A DNA stretch of 14,376 nt from Bdellovibrionota bacterium FG-2 (GCA_051382305.1 JBBCAV010000106.1:1-14376), one strand, 5' to 3'; positions 4,394 through 10,782 are shown, numbered from the stretch's first letter. A program made the numbers and translations. The notes: generated by a model from the sequence alone, not told the origin.

Positions 4394-4415
4394 ATCGAAT
4401 ACGAGGCAATCGTAA

Positions 4416-4468
4416 TTAATAAACTTTAATTTCGCTTTCATAAGACTCTAATCCCGGTCGCTTAGAGT
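4416..4468 (+). promoter_or_regulatory. Putative OmpR-family-activated promoter, copy 1 (upstream of micro-ORF and response regulator)
   Basis: TTAAT(4416), TTAAT(4426), TTCAT(4437), CTAAT(4448), then 10 nt, then -10 TAGAGT (4463-4468). Same geometry as 6619-6671. Confidence 0.6.
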
Positions 4469-4475: not shown

Positions 4476-4538
4476 ATGGACACCTTGTATCCCGCTGTTG
4501 TGTGGCTAGCTCTTCTCGCGCTGATTCAAAGACTGTGA
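4476..4538 (+). CDS. Putative leaderless 20-aa hydrophobic micro-protein MDTLYPAVVWLALLALIQRL
   Basis: ATG lies 7 nt after the predicted -10 with no SD. The peptide has a continuous hydrophobic core (AVVWLALLALI) and ends in tandem stops TGA-TAG, 20 nt before the regulator ATG. Confidence 0.45.
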   Translation: MDTLYPAVVWLALLALIQRL

Positions 4539-4558: not shown

Positions 4559-5230
4559 ATGAGACTTCTCGTTGTTGAAGATCAAAAGAAAATGTTGGGC
4601 TTTCTGAAAAAAGGCCTTACCGAGGCGGGCTACTCCGTGGATGCGGCTGATACTGGCGCGACCGCCGAGGCTTTGGCCGCCGAAAACACGTATGACCTCA
4701 TTGTCCTTGACGTGATGCTTCCGGATCAAAGTGGGTTAGATACCTCTCGGCATATGCGCCGTGATGGCTTTTCCGGCGCCATTCTCATGCTCACGGCATT
4801 GGCCGGGACTAAAGATAAAGTACAGGGTTTGGACGCGGGAGCGGATGACTACTTGACGAAGCCGTTTGCCTTTGAGGAACTCTTGGCCCGGGTGCGTGCG
4901 CTTTTGAGGCGGGGGACCCCTTCTGGGCAGCCTGTTTTGCGATTTTCGGATTTGGAGGTGGATCTTGTCACGCGCAAGGTCTGTCGTTTGGGGAAGGAGA
5001 TCCTGCTCACGGCAAAGGAATTTGCGCTTTTGGAGTTTTTCTTGCGGAATCCCAATCGGCCGCTTTCGCGTACTGAGATCAGTGAACACGTCTGGGACGT
5101 GCATTTTGATAGCGATAGTAATGTGATTGATGTGTACATTAATATGCTGCGAAAGAAAGTCGATCAACCGTTCAAGAAAAAGTTGATTCATACGATGGTT
5201 GGCGTGGGCTATGTCCTCAGGCAAGAGTAG
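4559..5230 (+). CDS. OmpR/PhoB-family DNA-binding response regulator (CusR/CzcR-like)
   Basis: MRLLVVED, VLDVMLP, GADDYLTKPF, winged helix LTAKEFALLE...SNVIDVYINMLRKKVD...IHTMVGVGY; SD GAGGGA at 4545-4550. Confidence 0.96.
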   Translation: MRLLVVEDQKKMLGFLKKGLTEAGYSVDAADTGATAEALAAENTYDLIVLDVMLPDQSGLDTSRHMRRDGFSGAILMLTALAGTKDKVQGLDAGADDYLTKPFAFEELLARVRALLRRGTPSGQPVLRFSDLEVDLVTRKVCRLGKEILLTAKEFALLEFFLRNPNRPLSRTEISEHVWDVHFDSDSNVIDVYINMLRKKVDQPFKKKLIHTMVGVGYVLRQE

Positions 5231-6632
5231 AGGGCTGCAGTTTCGTTTAACCGTGCTTTTTGTTGCCATTTTTGGAGTATTGCTTGTCCTATTTTGCACA
5301 CTTCTTTATGTGGAGTTTTCCCGGACCCAGCAGGCAGAGTTTGATGCCGCTCTCTTTAATCACGCCGTCGATATGTCTCAGACCATTGAGGTAGATTTTT
5401 TTGGCCGGCTTTCGATCCACTCGGATCAACTGGCGGAGGAGGGAAAAGTTTTTCCGTTCGCCCTAGGAAAAGCTTATCTCCAAATCAGCGATCAAAATGG
5501 CGAAATCCTAATGCGTTCGAGTAGCCTTGGGAGTCGCCAATTGCCTTTTTCCAAAGAGGATCAGGCGCTTTTGTTTGGGCAAAGAGTCACCTTTAAGACG
5601 TTTGAGCCGGGGGATCGATTGCCGTCTTACCGTTTGATTTCTTATTTGGTGGAGCGGCAGCCCGGCGTGCGTTTGATTTTGCAGATTGGCGTACCCTTAA
5701 ATCTTTTGGATCGCCAGAAAAGAGGGCTACTCGCATTCTTTCTAATCACGATTCCCTTGATCCTGGTTTTGGCAATCTTTGGTGGACTGCTCTTTTCAAG
5801 GCGGGCTTTGGATCCGGTCCGAGCTATTATTGAAAAGGCAAAAGAGATGAGCCCCTCGCAGCTGTCAGAGCGAGTTCCTGTTCCGGTTGAAAAAGACGAA
5901 TTACGGGAACTCGCACTTACGTTGAACCATCTTTTGGACCGCCTTCAGCAGTCCTTCGAGAGTCAGGAACGTTTCATTGCTGACGCCTCTCATCAGCTCA
6001 AGACCCCTCTTGCGATTTTGAGGGGCGAACTTGATGTCCTCAAAAGGCGCCCCAGGACAGTGGAGGAGACGAGTGGCTTTCTTGTGAGTGCTTCGCAAGA
6101 GGTCGAGTATCTTTCAAAGATGGTTGAAGATTTGCTCGTTTTGGCGCGTGTAGATGCGGGTTTCGGCACGCTTTCAATCAAGAAGGTTCGTGTGGACGAA
6201 CTGGCTCTTGAAGCGGTGTCACGCCTTGAGCGATTTGCGCAAACTAGGAAGGTGAAAATTCGGTTTAATTTAGGGGGCTCTGGTTCTTTTGAGATTTTAG
6301 GGGATTCAGATCTTCTGCAAGTGATGCTTCGAAATCTTCTAGAGAATGCAATTAAGTTTTCCCCAGAAGACAGTTGTGTCGAGGTCGAAGTGAACGATGA
6401 GCCTGCGTTTGTTTCCGTGAGAGTAAGTGATCGCGGGCCGGGGATTCCGCTCGAGGCAAGAGAGCGCATTTTTAGTCGATTTTTTAGGGCTGAAAATACG
6501 CGCAATTCAGTCGCTGGCGTAGGTCTCGGACTTCCTATTGCGAAGCGAATTATTGAAATTCATCAAGGAACAATTGAAGTGAGCGACGCTCATCCAGGCG
6601 CTTCATTTACTGTGAAGATTAAAAAGAATTAA
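5211..6632 (+). CDS. HAMP-domain sensor histidine kinase (CusS/QseC-like architecture)
   Basis: Two TMs flanking a periplasmic domain, HAMP (PVRAI...DELRELALTLNHLLDRL), H-box FIADASHQLKTPL, NLLENAIKFS, DRGPGI, GVGLGL. ATG 5211 overlaps the regulator's 3' end. Confidence 0.95.
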   Translation: MSSGKSRGLQFRLTVLFVAIFGVLLVLFCTLLYVEFSRTQQAEFDAALFNHAVDMSQTIEVDFFGRLSIHSDQLAEEGKVFPFALGKAYLQISDQNGEILMRSSSLGSRQLPFSKEDQALLFGQRVTFKTFEPGDRLPSYRLISYLVERQPGVRLILQIGVPLNLLDRQKRGLLAFFLITIPLILVLAIFGGLLFSRRALDPVRAIIEKAKEMSPSQLSERVPVPVEKDELRELALTLNHLLDRLQQSFESQERFIADASHQLKTPLAILRGELDVLKRRPRTVEETSGFLVSASQEVEYLSKMVEDLLVLARVDAGFGTLSIKKVRVDELALEAVSRLERFAQTRKVKIRFNLGGSGSFEILGDSDLLQVMLRNLLENAIKFSPEDSCVEVEVNDEPAFVSVRVSDRGPGIPLEARERIFSRFFRAENTRNSVAGVGLGLPIAKRIIEIHQGTIEVSDAHPGASFTVKIKKN

Positions 6633-6671
6633 TTTCCTATTAATGCCTCTTTAACGGCCCTTCGTTATTGT
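6619..6671 (+). promoter_or_regulatory. Putative OmpR-family-activated promoter, copy 2 (drives sRNA)
   Basis: TTAAA(6619), TTAAT(6629), TTAAT(6640), TTAAC(6651), then 10 nt, then -10 TATTGT (6666-6671). The boxes occupy the -35 region, and 11-bp TTAA direct repeats resemble PmrA/QseB-type sites. Confidence 0.65.
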
Positions 6672-6678
6672 TCTAACT

Positions 6679-6778
6679 GTGTTGAGGCAAAACATTCTTA
6701 GCACAACCCACCCATAGCAGGCAGGTGGTGGAACCCAACCCCCTCCGGGTCGCCACCTGCCGCATTTCTCGCCCTGCT
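6679..6778 (+). ncRNA. Putative structured small RNA with C-rich anti-SD loop
   Basis: Hairpin 1 is GUGUUGAGG (6679-6687) / UCUUAGCAC (6696-6704). Hairpin 2 is GGCAGGUGGUG (6720-6730) / CGCCACCUGCC (6751-6761), with inner ACCC/GGGU and loop AACCCCCUCC (6737-6746). All four non-Watson-Crick stem pairs are G-U wobbles on the + strand only. Confidence 0.65.
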
Positions 6779-6785
6779 TGTCTTC

Positions 6786-9125
6786 TTATTTCTCCGTGCC
6801 GCGAATGACCTTTTCTGAAATCACATCTGAAGCCGGACTGTCTGACGTCGCGAGCTTTCCACTTTTTCGATCAAGCTTCACATCAACGAGATCCGGATTC
6901 TGAGGAAATCCTTCGGGAGGCTGGCGTAGGAGCGCCGTGTTCATGAAATTGACCCAGATGGGAAGTGCGGACGTGGCTCCGGTGAGGAGGAGTTTGGTTT
7001 TCTTTTTACCTTTTTCCTGAAGTTCCTCCAGGTGGGGGGCCTCGTCCAGACCGACCCATACCACGGTGGTAAGTTGAGGAGAATAGCCTGCGAACCAGCT
7101 ATCGCGATGGTGACTCGTGGTACCCGTTTTCCCGGCCGCAGCGTTCTTATAGCCCAAATCACGAGCTGTCCGTGCTGTTCCTTCAGTGAAGACGGATTCA
7201 AGCATATCCGTCATGAGGTCCGCTTCAGTTGACTCCAATATTTTCTTAGGATGAAAAACAAAACGTGCGTAACCCGTTCCATCGTCTTGGGTGATTCCAC
7301 GAATCACGGTGAGTTCTTCTTGAAGACCGTGGTTCGCAAGGGTCCCATAGATGCGAAGCAGTTCAATAGGGGAGAGCTCCGCGACCCCCAGGGAGAGGGA
7401 GGGCACGGCGGGGAGATCGGATTCCACCCCCAAGCCTTTTGCAAGTTGAATTATCTCGGAGAGACCGACTTCGTAACCAAGCTTAGCCGTTACCGTGTTT
7501 ACGGAGTGGGCGAGCGCAGTGCGCAGGGAGGTCCAGCCCAGGAATTCTTTTTCGTAGTTTTTCGGGGACCAGTTCTGTTTTCCGTTATCATATTCAATCG
7601 TCCAGGGGGCATCTTCCATGGGGTAGCCGGGGGTGTAGGGAACGCCATGGACATCCGTTCTCTTTTTGATTGCGGCTAGGAATACGAGGGGTTTGAAAGT
7701 GGAGCCCACCTGGCGTTTCATGTTGAGGATGCGATTGAAAGTGGAAGCCGCGTAGTTGCGGCCCCCGACGAGCGCCCGGATGAATCCGTTGTGGTGATCC
7801 ACGCTAGCGAGTGCCCCCTCGAGTTTGAGCCCGGGGGGGAGTTTGAGAGCTTTGTCCAAATGAGCGACGCCGTCGGCGACCGCTTTTTGCGCGGCCGCAT
7901 TGAGGGGCACGTCGAGCGTCGTGTAAACGTGAAACCCAGCTTGCGGAATTTCTTGTTCGCTAACCCGATCTTTGAGAAGGCGGATGAGTTCAGCTTTTGC
8001 GTAGTCAGTAAAATAAGGCGCTTTGTTGGAGGCTGTCTGTGCCGGCGCCAGGCGTATGGGCATTTTCAGGGCTTCTTTGGCTTCTCCTTCTGCGAGTTGC
8101 CCGGTTTCGACCATTTTCTTTAGGACAAGTTTTTGTCTGTCTATCGCGCGTGCGCGATGAGTGTACGGCGAATAAAAGCCCGGACCCCGAATGAATCCCG
8201 CCATCAGTGCGACTTCAGCGAGGTTGAGTTCCTCGAGCCTTTTGCCAAAAAAGTGCTTGGCTCCTTCGGAGACGCCATGGATTTCGAGGTTTCCGACTTG
8301 CCCGAGATAAACTTCATTGAGATAGCGTTCAAGAATCTGCTCTTTTTCAAAGCGGAGTTCCAAGAGAATGGCGAGAAACACTTCGTTTATTTTTTTAAAG
8401 AAATTTTTTCCCCGTCTGGCGGTTAGATTTTTTACCAGCTGCTGCGTAATCGTACTTCCGCCTTGTGCCAGAGAGCGGGTTTTAATATTCACCCACACGG
8501 CGCGAAGAATTCCGCGAGGGTCGAATCCCTTGTGTTCTAGGAAGTGTTGATCTTCAATTGCGATAATGGCGGTTTTGACGTGATTTGGAATTTCATCGAA
8601 TTTGATAACGTCGCGCACCTCATTTTGATCTGATTTCTGTTCGCCCGCTTGAGAGGGACGAGATAATGTCGCGACCAATTCGGGTTCAAGGTAGAGGTCA
8701 GGGGTTGCTCGGCCCCCAACTTCGATGGATTGGAGCGGAGCGTCCGCAGCGGGTGTTTCAAATTTAAGAATTGTTTTCTTGCCGTACGCGTCAATGGTGG
8801 GGTGGTTTTCTGGAATGAGGTAGATGGGATAATTGACTTGATGCATCTCGAAACTTATCGATTCTGGCGCAAGTTTGGCTTCGTAGCCCCGGTTTTTGAG
8901 CTGTTCCAGGATGAATCCTCGTCGCTGAGGTTGGCTAATTCGTAGGATATCTGAGTAGATTCGCGTCGGAATGAATTGACTCTGTTGCACGAAGCTTCGG
9001 CCTAATTGTACGTAGAGAAAACCCAGGTAAACCCCAAAAAGGGCGGTGCCTATCAACGCCAGGAGGGCGAGGGGTTTCCAGAGTTTTTTGTTCCGAGAGC
9101 TTCTTTTTTTTATGGTTTTTCGCAT
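6786..9125 (-). CDS. mrcB: Class A penicillin-binding protein (PBP1B-like transglycosylase/transpeptidase)
   Basis: Basic N-tail plus TM, an intervening domain at the UB2H position, GT51 motifs AIEDQHF, GGSTITQQLVKN and ILERYLNEVYLG, transpeptidase SxxK (STFK), SxN (SVN) and KTGT. Start uncertain (ATG 9125 or TTG 9134/9140); mrcB is assigned from architecture. Confidence 0.9.
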   Translation of the reverse strand: MRKTIKKRSSRNKKLWKPLALLALIGTALFGVYLGFLYVQLGRSFVQQSQFIPTRIYSDILRISQPQRRGFILEQLKNRGYEAKLAPESISFEMHQVNYPIYLIPENHPTIDAYGKKTILKFETPAADAPLQSIEVGGRATPDLYLEPELVATLSRPSQAGEQKSDQNEVRDVIKFDEIPNHVKTAIIAIEDQHFLEHKGFDPRGILRAVWVNIKTRSLAQGGSTITQQLVKNLTARRGKNFFKKINEVFLAILLELRFEKEQILERYLNEVYLGQVGNLEIHGVSEGAKHFFGKRLEELNLAEVALMAGFIRGPGFYSPYTHRARAIDRQKLVLKKMVETGQLAEGEAKEALKMPIRLAPAQTASNKAPYFTDYAKAELIRLLKDRVSEQEIPQAGFHVYTTLDVPLNAAAQKAVADGVAHLDKALKLPPGLKLEGALASVDHHNGFIRALVGGRNYAASTFNRILNMKRQVGSTFKPLVFLAAIKKRTDVHGVPYTPGYPMEDAPWTIEYDNGKQNWSPKNYEKEFLGWTSLRTALAHSVNTVTAKLGYEVGLSEIIQLAKGLGVESDLPAVPSLSLGVAELSPIELLRIYGTLANHGLQEELTVIRGITQDDGTGYARFVFHPKKILESTEADLMTDMLESVFTEGTARTARDLGYKNAAAGKTGTTSHHRDSWFAGYSPQLTTVVWVGLDEAPHLEELQEKGKKKTKLLLTGATSALPIWVNFMNTALLRQPPEGFPQNPDLVDVKLDRKSGKLATSDSPASDVISEKVIRGTEK

Positions 9126-9163
9126 GGGGGTCAAAATCAAACTTCCTGTTTTATTTAATCTCC

Positions 9164-9192
9164 TTGACGGGACTCTATCTGGTCAATAGAAA
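9164..9192 (+). promoter_or_regulatory. Putative sigma70 promoter of the beta-barrel gene, overlapping a TTGAC-N13-GTCAA palindrome
   Basis: TTGACG (9164-9169), 17 nt, TAGAAA (9187-9192); GTCAA at 9182-9186. Confidence 0.4.
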
Positions 9193-9234
9193 ACTGGATA
9201 GGCCTTAGGTTCTGAATAGCTATAGGAGACTTGC

Positions 9235-10782
9235 TTGAATAAAATTCGTGTTGTGTCGGTAGGGTTGAAAGCCGGAGTTATGGGGTTGATGTTGGGGGCC
9301 AGCGTCCAGTCGTCTGCGATGGAGCTGGATTGGTCGGGTCAGTTTCGATCCGAACTGAATATCGTCCACAACTACGCGCTTGATAATACACCCGACGGTG
9401 AAGTGTATGATCCCGCTCGCGCGCTAGGAAACGGCTACTATGTCCCGAGTGGTGGCCAGCGCACGGCACATTTTCAGACTCTCTTCATGAAGCTTCGCCC
9501 GAAGCTCGTTGTGAATGACAACGTCTATATCAAATCTGAGTGGTGGGTGGGGGATCCCGTATACGGAATTTTTGGGAATGGCGTTCCGTATTCGACTGAT
9601 CAGCGTCGTTGGAATTCTACGTTTAATCGTGGAGCGCCTATTACAGCCCAGCGCTTTTGGGGCGAGTTCTTAAGTGAGTTTGGAACGGTTCAAGTGGGGC
9701 GTGCTCCTTTGAATTGGGGCTTGGGAGTGGTTTGGAATTCCGGTGACGGGTTGTGGGATCGGTATTCTTCAACCGGAGATACGATCAGGTTGATCTCCAA
9801 ATTTGGGGCGTTTACGTTTATTCCGAGTTTTGTTTCTTATTCGGCTGGAAACACTATTGGCGGCGCGTGCTCGGTTGTGGGCGGCGTGTGTGTTCGTCCT
9901 CAAAGTGTCACCGAGCAGGGAATCAGTGGCGTGTCCGAGTATACGCTCGCTTTTCGTTACGAGAATCCGGATGAGGACTTTGATGGCGGTGTGAATTTGG
10001 TAAGACGAATTGCGGGTACGGAGCAGGATCGAAGCAACGGCCTTGCGGGTCCGGAAAATACTGCTGGAGCGATGCATTTTAATACTTGGGATATTTACGG
10101 AAAAAAGCGGCTGGGTAAATTCACACTCTCTGGGGAGTTTCCGATTACGAGTGGAAATCTTAATGGGCCTGAGTATTCGACTTTTGCAGTGTTGGGTGAG
10201 CTTAATTGGAAAATGTCGGATTCTTGGGAAAGTTATGTAAAAGTGGGGCATGCACCTGGGCAACCGAATGGGGATTCTACGGACCTGACTCAGTTCAAGG
10301 CCTTCTATTTTCATCCCAATATTCGACCTGCGATGATTATGTTTAATTATCAGTTGGCAAATTTTGCGGGAATCAATACTCAAAATAGTGCTGCAGTGGG
10401 TGCTGCAAACTTGGCTTCTCCTTATGATAACCCGATCGTGAATGCGAACTTCATTAGTGTGGGGGGGGCGGCGCATGTTGATAAATGGGGTTTCAAGTTG
10501 AATTGGACTTATGCCAAGGCGCTTGAAACCGCAGTCACGGGCAAGTATTTCTATAATACGCGCTTAAGGCAGATGGTGGGTCCCGCGATAAAAGATCAGG
10601 AAAGTTCCTTGGGTTGGGAAACGGATTATACAACTTCGTTTCAGTGGGATGAGGCGTTTCAGTTTAACTGGGATTTTGGCCTTTTCGTGCCGGGTGGGTA
10701 TCACAAGTTCTCAAATACCGGGACGGACAACGCCACCTCGTTGGTGTATGCGACGAGCTTTCGGTTAGGGGTTTCGTTTTAG
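9235..10782 (+). CDS. Outer-membrane beta-barrel (porin-like) protein of unknown substrate
   Basis: SD AGGAG (9224-9228) 6 nt before TTG; signal peptide ending SSA/MELDWSG; many alternating amphipathic aromatic strands; C-terminal beta-signal RLGVSF. Confidence 0.85.
   Translation: MNKIRVVSVGLKAGVMGLMLGASVQSSAMELDWSGQFRSELNIVHNYALDNTPDGEVYDPARALGNGYYVPSGGQRTAHFQTLFMKLRPKLVVNDNVYIKSEWWVGDPVYGIFGNGVPYSTDQRRWNSTFNRGAPITAQRFWGEFLSEFGTVQVGRAPLNWGLGVVWNSGDGLWDRYSSTGDTIRLISKFGAFTFIPSFVSYSAGNTIGGACSVVGGVCVRPQSVTEQGISGVSEYTLAFRYENPDEDFDGGVNLVRRIAGTEQDRSNGLAGPENTAGAMHFNTWDIYGKKRLGKFTLSGEFPITSGNLNGPEYSTFAVLGELNWKMSDSWESYVKVGHAPGQPNGDSTDLTQFKAFYFHPNIRPAMIMFNYQLANFAGINTQNSAAVGAANLASPYDNPIVNANFISVGGAAHVDKWGFKLNWTYAKALETAVTGKYFYNTRLRQMVGPAIKDQESSLGWETDYTTSFQWDEAFQFNWDFGLFVPGGYHKFSNTGTDNATSLVYATSFRLGVSF

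Follow-up and report, generated by a model that had tools for sequence, protein, structure and literature searches.

In Pho-box promoters, the place of the -35 element is taken by direct repeats with a periodicity of about 11 bp, which stop about 10 bp short of the -10 element. Helicobacter pylori is not known to possess Hfq, and to our knowledge no small RNA has been described in Oligoflexia. According to the description of RepG, an RNA of H. pylori, the loop of its terminator is C/U-rich and base-pairs with a G-repeat located in a 5' UTR (PMC8295292). DapZ and MicL are presented as small RNAs (sRNAs) that lie at mRNA 3' ends, carry their own promoter and act through Hfq (PMC9438474). Pxr of Myxococcus xanthus lies downstream of pxrR and pxrK, which control its synthesis; it is described as folding into three stem-loops and as having a sigma-54 promoter to which an enhancer site and an NtrC-like activator belong (PMC5684412). 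The cuckoo RNAs are described as two to four adjacent hairpins, each with CCUCCUCCC in its loop (PMC4615179). The location of Pxr and the cuckoo loop CCUCCUCCC had both been quoted in the original prediction for the present locus, and both are correct as printed in these two papers.

The whole stretch of DNA analysed here, referred to as the window, comprises 14,376 nucleotides of Bdellovibrionota bacterium FG-2, an uncultured member of the Oligoflexia, and forms contig C106 of a 4.34-Mb assembly (G000) with 433 contigs and 85% completeness. A sister species of the same genus (G001, 98% complete) contains the syntenic stretch. The element under study lies between two convergent transcription units, and the surrounding genes are as follows.

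4559-6632, + strand: two-component operon of regulator and kinase (Pfam, NCBIfam)
4559-5230, + strand: OmpR/PhoB-type response regulator (Pfam) with a Trans_reg_C output domain, not a sigma-54 activator domain
5199-6632, + strand: HAMP-HisKA-HATPase sensor kinase ORF (Pfam), stop codon TAA at 6630-6632
6633-6785, 153 nt: gap between the convergent units, with the kinase (+) on one side and the penicillin-binding protein (PBP) gene (-) on the other
6786-9140, - strand: convergent gene for a class A PBP (Pfam, NCBIfam)

The two-component genes on the + strand and the convergent class A PBP gene on the - strand are the flanks that had been claimed. However, the naming of the convergent gene as PBP1B is not established, since the protein passed the PBP1A-family cut-off of NCBIfam but missed that of the PBP1B equivalog. 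For the two-component pair, the nearest NCBIfam subfamily was heavy-metal CztRS/SilRS/CopRS, below its cut-off. The PBP gene was located 3' of the kinase in two of 30 orthologous loci, namely the window and G001 only. Its start codon is ambiguous (TTG at 9140, an in-frame TTG two codons on, or ATG at 9125), and 9141-9234 is a divergent promoter region between the PBP gene and the ORF at 9235-10782 (weak match to TIGR04551); this region is 92-96% identical to G001, above the identity of the flanking genes.

Folding of 6679-6778 (100 nt, + strand) gave a minimum free energy (MFE) of -39.4 kcal/mol (z = -3.65), whereas 200 dinucleotide shuffles averaged -26.96 ± 3.41 kcal/mol and not one of them was as stable. 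The fold of the reverse strand was unremarkable (z = -0.74; 50 of 200 shuffles as stable), so the + strand proposed originally stands, and the asymmetry between the strands fits the three G-U pairs of hairpin 1 and the one U-G pair of hairpin 2. The predicted RNA is composed of the following parts.

6679-6704, + strand: hairpin 1 (5'), arms 6679-6687/6696-6704 (9 bp, 3 G-U pairs), loop CAAAACAU at 6688-6695
6705-6719, + strand: linker AACCCACCCAUAGCA, single-stranded in the fold
6720-6761, + strand: hairpin 2, lower stem 6720-6730/6751-6761 (11 bp), upper stem 6733-6736/6747-6750 (4 bp), bulge GA at 6731-6732, one U-G pair, C-rich 10-nt loop AACCCCCUCC at 6737-6746
6762-6770, + strand: weak U-tract tail GCAUUUCUC (UCAUCUCUC in G001), the presumed 3' end region

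The predicted succession of hairpin 1, a C/A-rich linker and an 11+4 bp hairpin 2 was thus reproduced by folding. Within the linker, the C-rich portion AACCCACCCAU (6705-6715) was invariant in G001 and positions 6716-6719 were variable; its unpaired probability was about 0.9 or higher in both species. The RNA is presumed to measure about 85-92 nt between its inferred ends, and the stop codon of the PBP gene is 24 nt from hairpin 2. An outer helix between AGCAG (6716-6720) and CUGCU (6774-6778) had also been suggested. The two arms are complementary, but the helix is outside both the MFE and the centroid folds; G6720 is shared with hairpin 2, and both arms are altered in G001 (GAAAG; tail diverged). 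Being unconserved and in conflict with hairpin 2, the outer helix was discarded.

The sequence upstream of this fold contains an array of direct repeats followed by a -10 hexamer (P2), and a four-repeat version is present upstream of the operon (P1).

6628-6655, + strand: P2 direct repeats ATTAAT (6628-6633), ATTAAT (6639-6644) and TTTAAC (6650-6655), 11-bp spacing
6666-6671, + strand: P2 -10 hexamer TATTGT (TAnnnT), 10 nt past the last repeat
4415-4452, + strand: P1 repeats ATTAAT (4415-4420), TTTAAT (4425-4430), TTTCAT (4436-4441) and TCTAAT (4447-4452)
4463-4468, + strand: P1 -10 hexamer TAGAGT, N10 after the last repeat
4476-4538, + strand: leaderless 20-codon ORF MDTLYPAVVWLALLALIQRL, starting 7 nt past the P1 -10

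The first P2 repeat overlaps the stop codon of the kinase, and the predicted +1, G6679, is 7 nt past TATTGT. A protein search for the kinase in 61 genomes of the family gave matches at E<=1e-40 in 31, and 30 kinase loci of about 4.4 kb were scanned on both strands with a regular expression consisting of the three repeats and TAnnnT. The array was found at the kinase stop, on the kinase strand, in 13 of the 29 loci having downstream sequence, and 5' of the regulator gene in 4 loci; there were only 2 matches elsewhere in the 30 loci. Inspection by eye added four kinase loci whose arrays fail the regular expression. Across genera, the first 45 nt past the kinase stop are alike, with TTTAAT-type repeats 11 bp apart and then TAnnnT. 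The motif consensus was drawn from 19 instances, and an ATG follows the -10 after 5-7 nt in 7 of 18 distinct instances (leaderless genes). In the window and in G001, a GTG stands at +7 from the -10 and coincides with the first base of hairpin 1. The placement of the +1 near G6679, as first proposed, is based on the position of these leaderless ATGs behind the same promoter type elsewhere, and the promoter 7 nt upstream is of a direct-repeat kind conserved in the family.

Matches of the P1 type were present upstream of the operon in the window, in G001 and in two other genera. The 20-codon ORF behind P1 begins with MNTLYP in G001, with synonymous changes; its product may be a small membrane peptide feeding back on the kinase. 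A third copy of the array is located on another contig of the same assembly (G000:C115:38331-38757; L069:1422-1848), before an unlinked gene for an HPF-fold protein. A loose form of the promoter pattern also gave false matches (TCAACAACGCTTCACGAG...) in a repeat family at the ends of contigs C301, C325, C360 and C392, at position about 57. A consensus sigma-70 scan of 6400-7000 detected no promoter, which is expected if the repeats of P2 replace the -35 element. Repeat periodicity of 10-11 bp, a -10 about 10 bp further on and adjoining cognate genes are the architecture of OmpR/PhoB-type promoters, and from these sequence features we read the array as the regulon promoter of the adjacent OmpR/PhoB-type regulator, with a +1 at about G6679. 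With a promoter conserved across the family and unpaired stretches that are almost invariant, the element looks like a transcription unit of its own on the + strand, in agreement with the original prediction.

The reading that we prefer, with roughly even chances of being correct, is a non-coding RNA of about 90 nt that is controlled by the two-component system and shares its terminal hairpin with the operon. The phosphorylated regulator would bind the three repeats at 6628-6655, as their architecture and conservation suggest, and the repeats would stand in for a -35 element 10 nt upstream of TATTGT (6666-6671). Transcription would begin about G6679, judging from the leaderless start codons. 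The product would measure about 85-92 nt, starting with hairpin 1, leaving the linker AACCCACCCAU unpaired and finishing with the very stable hairpin 2, whose 10-nt loop is C-rich; here the fold is computed and the ends are estimated. The 3' hairpin would also end read-through transcripts of the operon. The least secure step is that the two invariant, unpaired C-rich stretches would form the working surface; they may base-pair in an Hfq-independent manner with mRNA sites rich in G, whether these are ribosome-binding sites or runs of G, or may bind a protein. The RNA would then belong to the regulon-embedded sRNAs of the 3'-UTR type with their own promoter, in a slot that holds protein-coding cargo elsewhere. 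A stress-controlled small regulatory RNA, so far in one genus, is plausible.

Conservation was evaluated between two species only, the window and G001. The kinase proteins are 89.5% identical, and 77 of 201 four-fold degenerate sites in the kinase (38%) are identical, which is near saturation. The identities along the element are as follows.

P2 repeats and -10: 24/24 identical (18/18 repeat bases)
P2 promoter spacers: 13/20 identical (Fisher p 0.002 against the repeats and -10)
Hairpin 1, 5' arm: 9/9 identical
Hairpin 1, loop: 13-nt insertion in G001
Hairpin 1, 3' arm: 6/9 identical
Linker AACCCACCCAU: 11/11 identical
Hairpin 2: 41/42 identical, the sole change being C6745 to A in the loop
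15 nt past the tail: 6/15 identical

The layout of hairpin, single-stranded linker and hairpin is kept in G001 when its sequence is folded from the predicted +1. Through the changes in hairpin 1, two G-U pairs become G-C and one pair is lost, and all 15 pairs of hairpin 2 are invariant. There was no compensatory pair in either hairpin between the window and G001, and R-scape-type covariation is impossible at present because only two sequences are available; the support for hairpin 2 consists of its energy and its identity. CC/GG swaps at 6636-37, 6656-57 and 6677-78 were considered as helix covariation and dropped, as they fall within promoter spacers. The loop (9/10) and the linker (11/11) are unpaired in the predicted folds of both species, as a conserved single-stranded seed would be, and invariant, unpaired, C-rich stretches are, as sequence patterns go, typical of seed regions. 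High identity is not unique to the element, since nearby intergenic stretches are also 92-96% identical between the window and G001.

No family in Rfam 15 matched the window at gathering thresholds in a covariance-model scan, so the element is new to Rfam, as had been supposed. Over 6500-6900 at E<=10, the best match was ncS035 with 13.1 bits against a threshold of 79, which is noise. Searching the 4.34-Mb, 85% complete assembly for a second copy, as a REP- or MITE-like repeat would have, returned the self-match only. By blastn against 40 relatives, the element was detected in G001 only (78% identity over 133 nt); a 25-nt match in G013 is surrounded by unrelated sequence and was attributed to chance. 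An 18-nt loop pattern occurred in 10 stretches among genome contigs, and the flanks were shared by the G001 contig only. When 75 genomes of the family were searched with a covariance model derived from both sequences, the RNA was detected in 2, which belong to the same genus, once in each; two further matches at E about 0.3 were taken as chance. Run on 27 loci with an orthologous kinase from other genera, the same model gave no match. Metagenome contigs scanned with a kinase profile gave only paralogues (25-30% identity) and no close relative among the matches listed. The RNA and the junction of kinase and PBP gene co-occur, in this genus only.

Several contig ends of the assembly carry repeats of their own. 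The 3' end of a multi-copy element, 73-110 nt or more, is identical at eight contig ends (C63, C65, C75, C105, C179, C191, C290 and C380), about 75-330 nt from the end of the contig; it stops at ...CCCGGAGGGGGGACTCTAAA, after which the flanks differ. This element is probably mobile and broke the assembly, and it has no Rfam match. Its CCCGGAGGGGG is complementary to positions 6739-6749 of hairpin 2, which was taken as chance.

The designation of the hairpin 2 loop as an anti-Shine-Dalgarno loop did not hold in the sister species. The G001 loop reads AACCCCCUAC, in which the CCUCC core becomes CCUAC, though the run of five C is kept, and no conserved target was found. Exact complements of loop 11-mers numbered 38 genome-wide against 24.8 expected, 8 of them from one repeat family, which is chance level, and those of linker 11-mers numbered 13 against 29 expected; complementary 11- and 12-mers were no more frequent genome-wide than by chance. 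Of the duplex energies calculated for 45,686 candidate start regions, the top scores were merely noisy, and pairing with the start regions of the operon, the PBP gene, ORF 9235 and the gene on C115 was within about 1 SD of background. Shine-Dalgarno-like candidate targets in C360 and C45 were discarded, as they are within coding sequence and not kept in G001. The ends of C232, C236, C244, C342 and C417 show a start codon after a perfect long Shine-Dalgarno sequence AAGGAGGTGATCC, probably of one repeated gene, and C131 contains a 21-nt tandem repeat with GGATCACCTCCT. A search of the G000 assembly with this motif did not find the 3' end of 16S rRNA. Neither Hfq nor ProQ was found in G000 (85% complete) or G001 (98% complete), which fits a C-rich, chaperone-independent seed of the kind described for RepG (PMC8295292).

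In other genera, the position behind the kinase is occupied by protein-coding cargoes: a leaderless hydrophobic YPxxxW peptide, a protein of 90-136 aa, an HtrA-like protease, or small secreted proteins. The YPxxxW peptides, which resemble the product of the ORF behind P1, were found behind the post-kinase promoter in L029, L037, L047, L048 and L050. HtrA/DegP-like proteases (Trypsin_2 and PDZ domains) follow the kinase in two genera (L027:3043-4293 and L042:2957-4162), which hints that the two-component system answers envelope or protein-folding stress. Relatives of the 90-136-aa family stand directly behind the kinase in at least eight other genera, and the family had no sequence match in Pfam, NCBIfam or PDB. 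Its copy on C115 has 116 aa and an AlphaFold model (mean pLDDT 85.6) with a beta-alpha-beta-beta-beta-alpha fold, for which Foldseek gave 33 matches at E<=0.001, nearly all to HPF/YfiA/RaiA ribosome-hibernation factors (best match 4hei_A; E 1.6e-6, target-normalised TM 0.85). Canonical PF02482 genes are present elsewhere in both G000 and G001, and the modelled fold identifies the C115 protein as a predicted member of a divergent HPF-fold family wired to the two-component system.

Judged by its sequence, the stretch at the kinase stop is a predicted family-wide output promoter whose cargo changes between genera, from peptide, HPF-fold protein or protease to the candidate RNA found here. As the usual outputs of the two-component system touch translation, a translation-related role of the RNA is conceivable by analogy. 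It is a long shot that this cargo slot was refilled here with a C-rich, anti-Shine-Dalgarno-like RNA, so that a stress signal would damp Shine-Dalgarno-dependent translation through the RNA and the hibernation-factor-like protein while the leaderless messages of the regulon escape. The RNA was also considered as an orphaned leader, an idea that was dropped, as it has no similarity to the leader sequences that other genera have after that promoter. In one such locus (L049, genome G015; 0-290 nt past the kinase stop), a non-coding leader of about 230 nt comes after the post-kinase promoter; it contains the C-rich stretches CUCCACCCCCCC and CUCCUCCCUCC and precedes a gene whose ribosome-binding site is G-rich (AAAGGGGGA). 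This leader, which is unlike the window RNA in sequence, could have an anti-Shine-Dalgarno function in cis.

Termination alone could account for hairpin 2, because this genome often has strong hairpins where convergent genes end: among convergent gaps of 40-400 nt, hairpins of -25 kcal/mol or lower were present in 25 of 190, compared with 5 of 184 controls, and hairpin 2 (-29.9 kcal/mol in a 50-nt window) was the 8th most stable of the 190. It is a stable, G+C-rich hairpin, as intrinsic terminators require, and its tail GCAUUUCU has 4 U in 8 nt, with fewer in G001, below the U-tract of at least 5 U in 8. Of the hairpins in this genome that have 5 or more U in the next 8 nt, only those of -20 kcal/mol or lower were more frequent after genes (18/587) than inside them (1/587). 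A consensus scan of 6400-7000 gave no terminator-like site, and hairpin 2 has no good U-tract on either strand; a better terminator-like site on the + strand, followed by TTTTTCC, is located at 6981-7010 inside the PBP gene. The suggestion that hairpin 2 doubles as a terminator thus holds for its stability but not for its U-tract. It plausibly ends both the operon mRNA and the small RNA, with some read-through into the PBP gene being possible. A reading with a modest chance of being right goes further and takes the whole element as a terminator with a 3' UTR, perhaps a barrier toward the PBP gene, whose promoter is an ancestral leftover and whose RNA has no function of its own. The place between convergent stops, where stable hairpins are enriched, agrees with it, as do the fruitless target searches and the fact that the same promoter drives protein genes in other genera that are absent here. 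However, a leftover promoter should decay, yet all 24 motif bases are kept with 7 of 20 spacer bases changed. Nor does a terminator require that an 11-nt single-stranded linker be invariant or a 10-nt loop nearly so; the loops of most of the 25 strongest convergent-gap hairpins are 3-7 nt long.

The weak U-tract, which is absent in G001, the short distance from hairpin 2 to the PBP stop, the better terminator-like site within the PBP gene and the confinement of both the junction and the RNA to this genus can also be explained by an antisense or polymerase-collision device, in which P2 transcripts read into the 3' end of the PBP gene and couple stress to the cell-wall synthase. This has a small chance of being true: hairpin 2 is among the most stable gene-end hairpins of the genome, conservation falls directly past it (6/15), and the read-through is conjecture. 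A role other than base pairing, with the linker and loop bound by a protein (a poly-C-binding KH or HPF-fold protein) or the inverted repeat serving as a DNA site, has a slim chance; conservation at the level of the sequence rather than of the pairs and the lack of enrichment of complementary targets speak for it, but the U-G and G-U pairs argue for RNA over a DNA palindrome, and the protein partner is conjectural. The GTG at 6679 could finally start a leaderless peptide of 12 codons (6679-6717), being 7 nt past the -10 in both the window and G001, with the first five codons similar. This micro-ORF is hardly credible and was rejected, since the 13-nt insertion in G001 shifts the frame (12 vs 45 codons). 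The downstream nucleotides are identical but in a different frame in G001, so conservation is at the RNA level.

Should hairpin 2 be no more than a terminator, the finding would be ordinary. The preferred candidate, a small RNA under the adjacent two-component system, has a regulatory logic that can be read from a putative box for the cognate regulator, a predicted start and a single-stranded C-rich surface that is invariant, and is thus directly testable; it also suits a bacterium for which searches gave neither Hfq nor ProQ. The replacement of a protein-coding output by an RNA at one regulatory slot would be a tidy natural example.

Compared with known elements, hairpin 2 resembles an intrinsic (Rho-independent) terminator in being G+C-rich and in standing between convergent genes where a transcription unit ends, but differs from the typical form by its conserved 10-nt loop, its bulge and its 4 U in 8 nt; the flanking A/U tracts that are common at other convergent junctions in the genome are missing. 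P2 has the repeat and -10 geometry of Pho-box promoters, which are bound by OmpR/PhoB regulators, with its own TTTAAT-like repeat sequence, and binding of the regulator is predicted from the sequence. Pxr and the cuckoo RNAs are analogies only. The window RNA is located directly downstream of two-component genes, like Pxr as described in PMC5684412, but has two hairpins, an OmpR/PhoB-type array with a -10 and no Rfam match, and it does not belong to Pxr as characterised there. It has a C-rich hairpin loop with a partial anti-Shine-Dalgarno sequence, as the cuckoo RNAs do (PMC4615179), but only one such loop (AACCCCCUCC; the other is CAAAACAU), with CCUAC in G001, which places it outside the cuckoo RNAs as defined in that report. 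Like DapZ and MicL in the account of PMC9438474, it would have a promoter that coincides with or adjoins the upstream gene's stop codon, for which DapZ is the precedent, and a terminator shared with the mRNA; unlike them, it occurs where Hfq was not found, and its promoter is of the response-regulator direct-repeat type. With RepG as described in PMC8295292, it has no sequence or Rfam relation, and no conserved target of the G-repeat type was found here. Nevertheless, both have two stem-loops and a 3' loop rich in C (C/U-rich in RepG) and are encoded beside a response-regulator gene (PMC8295292), and the second invariant, single-stranded C-rich stretch, the linker, is a feature of the window RNA when set against RepG.
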